From assembly GCA_965248535.1 (NCBI GenBank), contig CBDFJR010000005.1:2144001-2208000 (forward strand): a stretch of DNA of 64,000 bases, read 5' to 3'. Shown piece by piece: positions 39,225 to 40,474 of the stretch. The position numbers were made by a program, and so were the translations under genes. The stretch comes from Phormidesmis sp. Lineage in GTDB: Bacteria > Cyanobacteriota > Cyanobacteriia > Leptolyngbyales > Leptolyngbyaceae. Numbering within the stretch: the stretch's first letter is position 1; every line of letters begins with the position of its first letter. The notes under the pieces are model-generated. The model was not told the DNA's origin and made no database searches. It saw only the letters and a program-made list of their open reading frames with translations.

Positions 39225-39272
39225 AAAAAATGAGAGATGAAGCAGATAGGTTGGTTTCACCTCCCATTTTTT
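39225..39272. terminator. Probable bidirectional terminator between glgC and aroF
   Basis: Imperfect hairpin aaaaaatgagagatgaagc...gtttcacctcccattttttt with A and T tails. Confidence 0.55.
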
Positions 39273-40128
39273 TAAGCGATCGCTAACTGGGGGCTTTGAG
39301 CCTCATAGACCTGACGACCGATCGCTTCGGCAACGGGCTTGAGACTGCGGACTAGACTCACCATGTCGTTGAGAGCTAACGCTTGACGGGCATCAGAAAC
39401 AGACTTTTCTGGCTCTGGGTGACACTCAATGATCAGACCGTCGGCACCACACGCGATCGCGCCACGAGATAGATCCGCGATCAGTTCTCGCTTTCCGGCG
39501 GCATGGCTGGGATCGACCATCACAGGTAAATGAGTGATTTGTTTGAGGGCGACGACGGCTCCTAAATCCAGCACGTTGCGAGTGTAGGGGTCAAAGCTGC
39601 GAATGCCTCGCTCGCACAGCACAACATTGGGGTTGCCGTGACTGACGATATATTCGGCGGCCATCACAAACTCCTCGATCGTCGCCGCCAACCCTCGCTT
39701 GAGCAAAATCGGCTTGTTGGCTTGTCCAACGGCTTTGAGCAGATCGAAGTTTTGCATATTGCGGCTGCCGATTTGCAGCATATCGGCATAGGCAGCGATT
39801 TCCTCGATCTGTGAAATGGCCATCACTTCAGTCACGACAGGCATCCCCGTAGCTGGTTGCGAACCTCTGCCAAGATTTCTAGCCCCTCGATGCCCATGCC
39901 CTGAAACGCATAGGGCGACGTGCGCGGCTTATAAACGCCACCTCGCAACGCTTGCACGGGCGCAAACTGAAGGTGACGGGCGACGGTTTCCATTTGCGTC
40001 AGGCTTTCGACGGTGCAGGGGCCGCCGATGACGACGATTTTTTGACCCCCGATCGCCACTCGCTCAGAGAGTTTAACGATCGTGTTCTGATTTGATTGAG
40101 ATTTAGCGACCAATTTTGCATCTTTCAT
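39272..40128 (-). CDS. aroF: DAHP synthase type I-beta, catalytic domain only; frameshift near 39845-39855 (error or pseudogene)
   Basis: ORF 40128-39832 (GGPCTVES, RGGVYKPRTSPYAFQG) plus ORF 39844-39272 (QIGSRNMQN, LKRG, CERG, DPSH, IECHP); AGGAG RBS at 40137-40141. Confidence 0.9.
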
Positions 40129-40148
40129 GACCTAGACTCCTAAATAAT

Positions 40149-40178
40149 AAAAAAGCCCGAAACCTTTGGGTTCCGGGC
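40149..40178 (-). terminator. Attenuator 2 intrinsic terminator
   Basis: RNA GCCCGGAACC-CAAA-GGUUUCGGGC-UUUUUU, immediately upstream of the aroF RBS. Confidence 0.9.
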
Positions 40179-40202
40179 CTGACGAACATTTGCACGACAG
40201 CT

Positions 40203-40265
40203 TCACCCAGAACTGGTTGGGATAAAAAAATAAAATCTAAATCGCCAGGAATTCAGGTGGAGCAT
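40203..40265 (-). CDS. Leader peptide 2, MLHLNSWRFRFYFFIPTSSG (Trp/Phe/Tyr-rich)
   Basis: 20-codon ORF with 6 aromatic codons in a run of 8; its 3' end is complementary to the left arm of the terminator. Confidence 0.8.
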   Translation of the reverse strand: MLHLNSWRFRFYFFIPTSSG

Positions 40266-40304
40266 CAGAGAAAAAACCGAATCAGGACATTTAATCAGGA
40301 CATT

Positions 40305-40332
40305 AAAAAACCGCAGAGGTTAGTCTGCGGTT
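40305..40332 (-). terminator. Attenuator 1 intrinsic terminator
   Basis: RNA AACCGCAGA-CUAACC-UCUGCGGUU-UUUU. Confidence 0.9.
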
Positions 40333-40359
40333 CACTGGGGCGCTCACAACGAACGACAT

Positions 40360-40413
40360 TCACCCCAAGTGAACCGCCTCGCGCCAAAAAAAGAAAAACG
40401 TGTTGTGAGACAT
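40360..40413 (-). CDS. Leader peptide 1, MSHNTFFFFWREAVHLG (Phe4-Trp)
   Basis: 17-codon ORF containing UUU UUC UUU UUU UGG; its 3' part pairs over about 16 bp with the terminator-proximal segment. Confidence 0.85.
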   Translation of the reverse strand: MSHNTFFFFWREAVHLG

Positions 40414-40445
40414 AAAAGGGTGCCGCTCGAAAACTGATTACTCTG

Positions 40446-40474
40446 AACTTAACAGAGGAACTCGATCGCGTCAA
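40446..40474 (-). promoter_or_regulatory. Sigma70-type promoter of the leader-aroF transcript
   Basis: TTGACG (40474-40469), 17-nt spacer, TAAGTT (40451-40446) preceded by TGn. Confidence 0.65.

Follow-up and report, generated by a model that had tools for sequence, protein, structure and literature searches.

The gene for a short 3-deoxy-D-arabino-heptulosonate 7-phosphate (DAHP) synthase of the cyanobacterium Phormidesmis sp. is most probably controlled by two ribosome-mediated (leader-peptide) transcription attenuators arranged in series. The element lies on the minus strand of a stretch of 64,000 nucleotides (nt) of contig CBDFJR010000005.1 (assembly GCA_965248535.1, positions 2,144,001 to 2,208,000), which is called the window throughout and to which all coordinates refer unless another contig is named. 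From 40474 to 40126, this strand successively displays a promoter, a first upstream open reading frame (uORF1), an intrinsic terminator, a second upstream open reading frame (uORF2), a second intrinsic terminator, an AGGAG motif and the start of the DAHP synthase. Each of these elements was found on the minus strand where an original prediction, made by a model from the letters of the window, had located it. The core claim of that prediction, two leader-peptide attenuators in front of a DAHP synthase, is supported by the conservation of the arrangement, the covariation of its helices, the in-frame starts and stops of the leader reading frames and a terminated transcript of Nostoc sp. PCC 7120. 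Such a layout goes beyond chance, since the whole arrangement is kept in other genera and its pairings covary.

Organization of the Leader Region

The features of the leader region, with the way in which each was recognized, are as follows.

40446..40474, minus strand: promoter, made of a -35 box TTGACG (40474-40469), a 17-base spacer ending in TGT and a -10 box TAAGTT (40451-40446); read from the sequence.
40360..40413, minus strand: leader ORF 1 (uORF1), MSHNTFFFFWREAVHLG, 17 codons and a TGA stop, with sensing codons F6-F9 and W10; read from the sequence.
40329..40375, minus strand: antiterminator 1, 5' strand 40375-40363 (the final five sense codons of uORF1) paired with 40340-40329; folds and covariation.
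40302..40333, minus strand: intrinsic terminator 1, stem-loop 40333-40308 (10 pairs, loop of 6) followed by a T run; terminator scan and alignment.
40203..40265, minus strand: leader ORF 2 (uORF2), MLHLNSWRFRFYFFIPTSSG, 20 codons and a TGA stop, with sensing codons W7, F9, F11, Y12, F13 and F14; list of open reading frames.
40170..40213, minus strand: antiterminator 2, leader 3' end 40213-40205 (GTTCTGGGT) paired with 40178-40170; fold without the 3' arm and covariation.
40147..40180, minus strand: intrinsic terminator 2, stem-loop 40180-40153 (12 pairs, loop of 4) followed by a T run; terminator scan and alignment.
40126..40141, minus strand: AGGAG ribosome-binding site (40141-40137) and ATG (40128-40126) of the DAHP synthase; read from the sequence.
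39272..40128, minus strand: short type I-beta DAHP synthase, split into 40128-39832 (98 amino acids) and 39844-39272 (190 amino acids); open reading frames and profile matches.

Each unit appears to be built from three interacting segments, namely the end of the leader, a shared arm and the 3' arm of the terminator. In unit 1, the 3' strand of the antiterminator (40340-40329) overlaps the 5' arm of terminator 1, and a small upper hairpin (40355-40341) surmounts the lower helix, the stop codon of uORF1 being lodged in the internal loop that separates them. In unit 2, the segment 40178-40170 is the 5' arm of terminator 2 itself and the leader end mimics the 3' arm of the terminator; in the consensus of this unit, the leader 3' end (AGTTCCGGG) is a copy of that 3' arm, competing for the same 5' arm. 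The complementarity proposed in the original prediction, between the 3' end of each leader and the left arm of its own terminator, is real in both units according to the folds. In the window, the 5' strand of the antiterminator begins 9-10 bases past the last aromatic codon in both units, and the stop codon comes where this strand ends.

As to the promoter, 65 of 72 related loci possess the motif TTGAC-N17-19-TAnnnT no farther than 110 nt upstream of uORF1; none of the 72 control stretches, taken 220-330 nt upstream, contains it. A simple consensus promoter scan of the window sequence called no site at all, the TTGACG/TAAGTT pair included. In Nostoc sp. PCC 7120, a start site determined by differential RNA sequencing (dRNA-seq) is situated just upstream of the homologous leader. 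It belongs to '3692672f', a predicted small RNA (sRNA) of 150 nt validated by Northern analysis, which Table S3 of Brenes-Alvarez et al. 2016 (PMC4734099) lists with a start at 3692672 (forward), an end at 3692822, 2268 reads and 27 homologues. The sequence printed for this RNA corresponds to unit 1, from the leader with its Y-F-Y-F-W codons and the antiterminator through terminator 1. From this table entry, both a promoter and frequent in vivo termination at terminator 1 are indicated in Nostoc PCC 7120. In the table row and in the searched passages of the main text, the RNA figures as a conserved small RNA only; neither a function nor a uORF nor a connection with the downstream gene is noted for it. 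The conserved small peptide ncl0160, which is described in a passage of the same publication, has a different sequence and is not this leader. According to the same source, 8 h after nitrogen step-down the reads of '3692672f' have increased from 285 to 1402 (wild type) or from 209 to 372 (hetR mutant), and the leader promoter may respond to nitrogen status.

Distribution among Cyanobacteria

A search with the leader DNA gave a match in 12 of 40 relatives (13 of 41 genomes with the window's own). Five genomes of the same genus match the leader over its full length with 82-86% identity, and those of other genera mainly match the core of unit 1. Both uORFs and both terminators occur in all 12 extracted loci, the window's own included. 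A larger set of 80 loci, the best 80 of 592 confirmed stretches, was collected with the short DAHP synthase as a query and one genome per species; all are labelled as cyanobacterial except for a few unlabelled or oddly labelled metagenome-assembled genomes (MAGs), and the genera include Nostoc, Calothrix, Microcoleus, Coleofasciculus and Stenomitos. A script searching for a uORF followed by a terminator detected two units in 67 of these loci (64, plus 3 with an extra spurious unit), a single unit in 11 and none in 2, both of the latter having less than 110 bases of upstream sequence. Covariance models retrieved unit 1 in 75/80 and unit 2 in 78/80 loci, counts which are circular in that the models were built from those same loci; unit 1 is missing from the two loci with a short upstream sequence and from L074, L086 and L097. 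In the loci possessing both units, terminator 2 and the gene are 24-261 nt apart (L084 excepted). In the comparison proposed with the original prediction, uORFs rich in F, W and Y codons and covarying stems are conserved upstream of the short aroF homologues.

Some individual loci deserve a separate mention. L074, L086 and L097, i.e., 3 of the 78 loci with enough upstream sequence, carry unit 2 only and represent natural single-attenuator variants; just 365 bases are available upstream in L097, from which unit 1 may be cut off. In L084, the units occupy positions 618-902 and the DAHP synthase match begins at 1501, about 600 bases apart, and an intervening insertion may have occurred. L096, a MAG labelled 'Proteobacteria bacterium', harbors both units together with a short DAHP synthase of 69% identity, and is either a mislabelled bin or an instance of the device outside the labelled cyanobacteria.

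The distribution was also surveyed in a separate sample of the phylum, consisting of an even set of 150 genomes and the window's own (151 in total). Unit 1 and unit 2 were each recovered in 21/151 genomes. Both were present in 19 genomes, adjacent, co-oriented and in one copy per genome; two other genomes hold unit 1 only and two hold unit 2 only, one of the latter with a weak match (E 6.8e-4). The matches are spread over about 9 of the 29 family labels of this sample, and none was found in the largest family label (0/50) nor in others (0/13, 0/10, 0/8, 0/8). Large-genome and for the most part filamentous lineages thus commonly carry the element; many other lineages yielded no match.

Covariation of the Alternative Helices

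The helices were assessed on MAFFT alignments of 73 unit-1 and 71 unit-2 sequences, the helix statistics of unit 2 being computed on 70 distinct sequences. For each helix, the number of base pairs (bp), the share of alignment cells paired, the pairs changed on both sides and the values of slid controls are given below.

Antiterminator 1, lower helix: 13 bp; 89.8% of cells paired; 6/13 pairs changed on both sides; slid controls 29-47%, a range that refers to the 20 submitted pairs together (lower helix and upper hairpin).
Terminator 1: 11 bp; 92.9% of cells paired; 4/11 pairs changed on both sides; slid controls 27-55%.
Antiterminator 2: 9 bp; 91.6% of cells paired; 3/9 pairs changed on both sides; slid controls 11-61%.
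Terminator 2: 9 bp; 96.2% of cells paired; 5/9 pairs changed on both sides; slid controls 13-63%.

The columns 86/128 of antiterminator 1 offer a particularly clear example, with an A-U pair in 60 sequences and a G-C pair in 13. In the same 13 sequences, the codon CAC (His) is replaced by CGC (Arg) and the partner U by C. Because this change of codon is matched in the partner strand, what is kept is the RNA pairing rather than the peptide, and it is this pairing, instead of the peptide, that fixes the 'VH' with which the uORF1 peptide usually ends. The sequence of the upper hairpin of unit 1 differs between lineages and aligns poorly, with 62.7% of cells paired.

A scan of the segment 39000-41500 against Rfam, with E values up to 10, gave 6 matches (E 1.3-9.5), all far below the gathering scores and none to a leader family; no match to Trp_leader, Phe_leader, T-box or riboswitch was obtained in this segment. 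The window folds and the alignments revealed no conserved helix between the region of the aromatic codons and the 5' strand of the antiterminator, i.e., no counterpart of the trp-type 1:2 hairpin.

Coding Properties of the Leaders

In unit 1, an in-frame ATG occurs in 73/73 sequences, the reading frame comprises 18 codons in 60/73 (range 16-21) and the stop codon is TGA in 70/73. In unit 2, an ATG occurs in 67/71 sequences, GTG or TTG in 2 and none of these within 75 nt in the remaining 2, and the length amounts to 20-21 codons in 54/69 (range 16-24). These start, stop and length figures concern properties for which the script did not select. With respect to composition, Phe, Tyr and Trp together account for 37% of the residues in unit 1 and 39% in unit 2, all three being present in 70/73 unit-1 and 67/69 unit-2 peptides, and the aromatic residues of unit 1 number 521 in frame, while the two alternative frames give 286 and 187; these composition figures are inflated, the script having selected loci with at least four aromatic residues near the end of the ORF before the terminator. 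Tyr and Phe are each encoded by both of their synonymous codons (in unit 1, TAC 73, TAT 104; TTT 193, TTC 34). In the genus of the window, the Tyr codons of unit 1 have disappeared (FFFFW), and elsewhere it reads Y-F-Y-F-W-F. The sensing codons match the end products of the very pathway to which the regulated DAHP synthase belongs.

Proposed Mode of Action

According to the attenuation model, a single promoter would yield a transcript whose first ~27 bases lead into uORF1, and a ribosome would translate uORF1 while RNA polymerase proceeds. When charged tRNA-Phe, -Tyr and -Trp are ample, the ribosome would reach the stop codon and cover the last five codons, which form the 5' strand of the antiterminator; with this strand covered, the shared segment would pair with the 3' arm of the terminator and transcription would stop at ~40302. 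When aromatic aminoacyl-tRNAs are scarce, the ribosome would stall on the F and W codons (elsewhere Y-F-Y-F-W-F), the leader end would pair with the shared segment, the terminator would not form and the polymerase would read through. Since the helix begins 9-10 bases after the last aromatic codon in the window, a ribosome stalled on any of the aromatic codons should leave the antiterminator strand free. The same choice would be repeated at uORF2 and terminator 2, the total read-through being approximately the product of the two. We infer from the sequences the translation of the uORFs, the stalling, the response to aromatic supply, the steps leading from stalling to read-through and the multiplicative effect.

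The original prediction had further proposed an AND-like or multiplicative gate over tRNA-Phe, -Trp and -Tyr. Since each unit usually carries F, Y and W codons, the same signal would be read twice, in line with a serial, roughly multiplicative control; the AND-like part of the proposal does not agree with the presence of all three codons in most units. A serial control of this kind would give a low basal level.

The energies of the competing structures were compared by folds forced into either state. On 135-nt segments of unit 1, the terminator state is favoured by a median of 3.3 kcal/mol (2.9 in the window), the antiterminator state being the better one in 27/73 sequences; these calculations depict unit 1 as nearly iso-energetic, as expected of a kinetic switch. 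A thermodynamic dominance of antiterminator 1, which had been suggested by a 114-nt fold, failed on the 135-nt segments. Taken together, the fold energies imply that the outcome would be decided by the order of synthesis and the position of the ribosome, as in known attenuators.

Concerning the origin of the doubled arrangement, a hidden Markov model (HMM) of unit 2, searched with an E limit of 10, matches 15/73 unit-1 sequences, the best match being collinear with an E of 7e-6, the reverse HMM search gives 3 weak matches, and the unit-2 covariance model R2 gives one weak match on a unit 1. These matches are suggestive of a common origin of the two units, and a shared U-rich composition could also explain them. 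A more ambitious view, which we consider rather unlikely, would be that leader-peptide attenuation, believed to be lacking in cyanobacteria, is old and widespread among them, that its doubled form, probably derived from a duplication, constitutes a two-stage kinetic filter on the supply of the three aromatic aminoacyl-tRNAs, and that the abundant terminated RNA also acts in trans on other transcripts of the aromatic pathway.

Weaknesses of the Attenuation Model

Several observations weigh against the attenuation model. No Shine-Dalgarno motif was seen upstream of either uORF, unlike the main gene with its AGGAG. The terminator state of unit 2 has the greater stability in 67/71 sequences, by a median of 10 kcal/mol, so that antitermination in this unit must rest on folding order alone. 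With no 1:2 hairpin, an untranslated leader is expected to read through, unlike that of E. coli trp. In many species, the last aromatic codon is located merely 3-5 bases from helix 1, and ribosomes stalled at this distance might partly block the antiterminator. The selection of loci by aromatic content, mentioned above, has to be counted here as well.

A last point of this kind, which the original prediction had overlooked, concerns the window itself, whose DAHP synthase is broken in the minus-strand segment 39832-39851 by two extra bases near 39851, the only insertion or deletion with respect to 7 aligned relatives. The contigs of two public runs of one study (X1 and X2), from which the assembly may have been made and which do not count as independent evidence, are letter-identical to the window over 39779-39904 save for these two bases, and none of those covering the site possesses them. 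Because these otherwise identical contigs are devoid of the two bases, the likeliest origin of the frameshift is an error in the assembly; at most, it would be a private variant. Similar errors may sit in other genes of this assembly.

Alternative Explanations

It is improbable that the short terminated transcripts are themselves the functional product, as a trans-acting sRNA or as aromatic-rich micropeptides, with a cis control that would be of secondary weight or would not exist. In favour of this view, the abundance of the unit-1 transcript in Nostoc PCC 7120 was sufficient for it to be listed and Northern-validated as an sRNA, and its sequence is strongly conserved. Yet every examined locus has the element directly upstream of a short DAHP synthase on the same strand, in one copy per genome, and the two successive units end 23-60 nt ahead of the gene's ribosome-binding site, which fits a cis control; moreover, the C-termini of the peptides vary along with the RNA pairing, which speaks against selection acting on the peptide. 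The element may nevertheless play a dual role, combining cis control with a trans-acting RNA.

A second alternative accepts the switches as real and has a signal other than translation set them, for instance a small ligand, a protein or an uncharged tRNA that binds the leader RNA, the aromatic 'uORFs' being a by-product of U-rich sequence. The lack of a Shine-Dalgarno motif is in its favour, and so is the upper hairpin of the unit-1 antiterminator, conserved and covarying, for which the attenuation model has no role. The in-frame ATG codons, the fixed position of the stop codon inside the switch and the narrow range of lengths are, however, hardly those of a by-product, and the excess of aromatic residues in frame over the other two frames of unit 1, even if affected by the selection bias, points in the same direction. 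In addition, synonymous changes and Tyr/Phe exchanges preserve the aromatic identity of the codons, these codons designate the pathway's own three end products, and the Rfam scan gave no riboswitch or T-box match even at E up to 10. Such a non-ribosomal signal accordingly appears quite improbable.

It is very improbable that the uORFs act on translation, by re-initiation or occlusion of the ribosome-binding site, with the hairpins as plain terminators of the upstream transcript: in the window terminator 2 does end only ~10 bases before AGGAG and the upstream gene is on the same strand, but a conserved promoter motif follows that gene and the Nostoc start site maps inside the intergenic region, the ending of an upstream gene needs no two terminators each with a covarying competitor helix, and a distance of 24-261 nt from terminator 2 to the gene is ill-suited to occlusion.

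The Downstream DAHP Synthase

The frame located downstream of the leader encodes a DAHP synthase of the KDO8P-synthase-like type (type I-beta), as identified by profile matches, the two pieces of the window's gene aligning to positions 67-156 and 159-337 of the DAHP synthase profile. The gene is intact in 11/11 related loci, with 282-292 amino acids. An intact relative passes the cut-offs of two NCBIfam models, with 401.8 bits for NF006421 (cut-off 335) and 361.1 bits for TIGR01361 (cut-off 267.75), and covers positions 67-337 of the 338 of the profile, from which it follows that the N-terminal regulatory domain is absent.

Three DAHP synthases occur in the genome of the window, one of the AroF/G/H type, a type I-beta enzyme with an N-terminal extension, and the short type I-beta enzyme. 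The two other loci, found by the genome search, are located on contig C5.

L001, contig C5, 2065192-2066064: further DAHP synthase locus; genome search.
L002, contig C5, 1326541-1327263: further DAHP synthase locus; genome search.

Among the three, the short enzyme alone carries the leader: the unit-1 model R1 has a single copy in the genome, and the unit-2 model R2, searched within the phylum sample, also has one copy in this genome. Because the short enzyme is devoid of the N-terminal domain that is present in a paralogue of the same genome, it is plausible that attenuation replaces allosteric feedback for this isoenzyme.

Flanking Sequences and Other Candidates

A crude scan of the genome for short ORFs enriched in one class of residues and followed by a terminator yielded 72 candidates, among which only the two units described here were convincing, the scan being insensitive and no proof of the absence of other attenuators. 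A Met-rich candidate (contig C5, near 1957395) turned out to be an out-of-frame reading of the acidic C-terminal tail of an upstream gene followed by the terminator of that gene, and a Cys-rich one (contig C5, near 233115) is situated inside a long ORF.

Just upstream of the promoter, the 131 bases of the segment 40480-40610 are G+C-rich and hairpin-prone. This stretch recurs on contig C2 (145290-145408) with 92% identity and partly on contig C5 (456487-456538), and, judging from these copies, it is a small dispersed repeat; its match to a CRISPR repeat in Rfam is at chance level. Farther upstream, the segment 40586-40902 (minus strand) contains an ORF of 78 amino acids that resembles PF09720, 'putative addiction module component', only weakly and below the threshold (E 0.16). 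This ORF overlaps the start of a 27-codon ORF beginning with MIYLLDT, which is cut short where the dispersed repeat begins. We take this start to resemble the first residues of a PIN-domain toxin, and the region may correspond to a decayed toxin-antitoxin pair.

Significance

If the attenuation model is true, the leader would represent the first classic amino-acid-sensing attenuator for cyanobacteria, would explain the conserved, Northern-validated 'small RNA' of Nostoc PCC 7120 and would show by what means the cell restrains an unregulated DAHP synthase isoenzyme. It would also provide a simple and testable read-out of transcription-translation coupling in organisms without Rho. Should the less likely view of an old, widespread and doubled filter be true, it would bring direct genetic evidence that, in a phylum without Rho, ribosomes trail RNA polymerase at a distance short enough for them to control termination. 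Two compact, orthogonal terminator switches responsive to amino acids would be useful for engineering the production of aromatic compounds in cyanobacteria.

Comparison with Known Systems

The E. coli attenuators trpL, pheL and pheM combine a short ORF in which the cognate codons are frequent with an intrinsic terminator and an exclusive antiterminator, the position of the ribosome deciding between the two structures. The trpL/pheL logic invoked in the original prediction is found here in the mutually exclusive terminator and antiterminator, but not in the details, since each unit comprises three segments and no 1:2 pause or anti-antiterminator hairpin of the trp type was found. Furthermore, one leader mixes here the codons for three amino acids, and two complete units follow each other in tandem. 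The three E. coli leader-peptide attenuators are also mentioned in a publication (PMC11802643) that summarizes the aroR-aroF attenuator of Corynebacterium glutamicum (Neshat et al. 2014): a leader peptide with a Phe-Tyr-Phe motif precedes the DAHP synthase operon, and transcription goes up on ribosome stalling at these codons. The likeness resides in an aromatic leader peptide situated upstream of an operon with a DAHP synthase gene. The aroR leader is single, belongs to the Actinobacteria and is reported to respond to Phe and not to Tyr, whereas the cyanobacterial leaders are doubled and also contain Trp codons.

Tandem attenuators had been regarded in the original prediction as unusual anywhere. 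The two ORFs of the Salmonella mgtCBR leader reportedly read different signals, and its stops are said not to be classic hairpin-plus-U-run terminators, whereas both units would read here the same three amino acids, each with a canonical intrinsic terminator. The mgtCBR case shows that a tandem leader-ORF arrangement is already in print, which tempers the claim of rarity: in the passage of PMC3641672 devoted to these 'tandem attenuators', two short ORFs are contained in a long leader and their translation is thought to pick the stem-loops and thereby the transcription of the coding region.

Among cyanobacteria, the passage of a 2026 preprint dealing with aroQ (bioRxiv 10.64898/2025.12.20.695498) describes Sml0012, a conserved protein of 45 amino acids encoded before aroQ (3-dehydroquinate dehydratase) in Synechocystis 6803, for which an effect on translation is proposed as a speculation. 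This small translated ORF resembles the present leaders in preceding a gene of the shikimate pathway in a cyanobacterium, and differs from them in that no run of aromatic codons and no terminator switch are described in that passage. A comparative study of 2016 (PMC4833913) stated that no reliable data on attenuation in cyanobacteria existed, and no published description of the present element in cyanobacteria was found by full-text searches, subscription journals being outside their coverage. The belief expressed in the original prediction, that classical leader-peptide attenuation had not been described in cyanobacteria, agrees with this survey. The mechanism and its use on a DAHP synthase are already known from Corynebacterium, and the novelty lies in its occurrence in this phylum, in its doubled arrangement and in its three-segment design.

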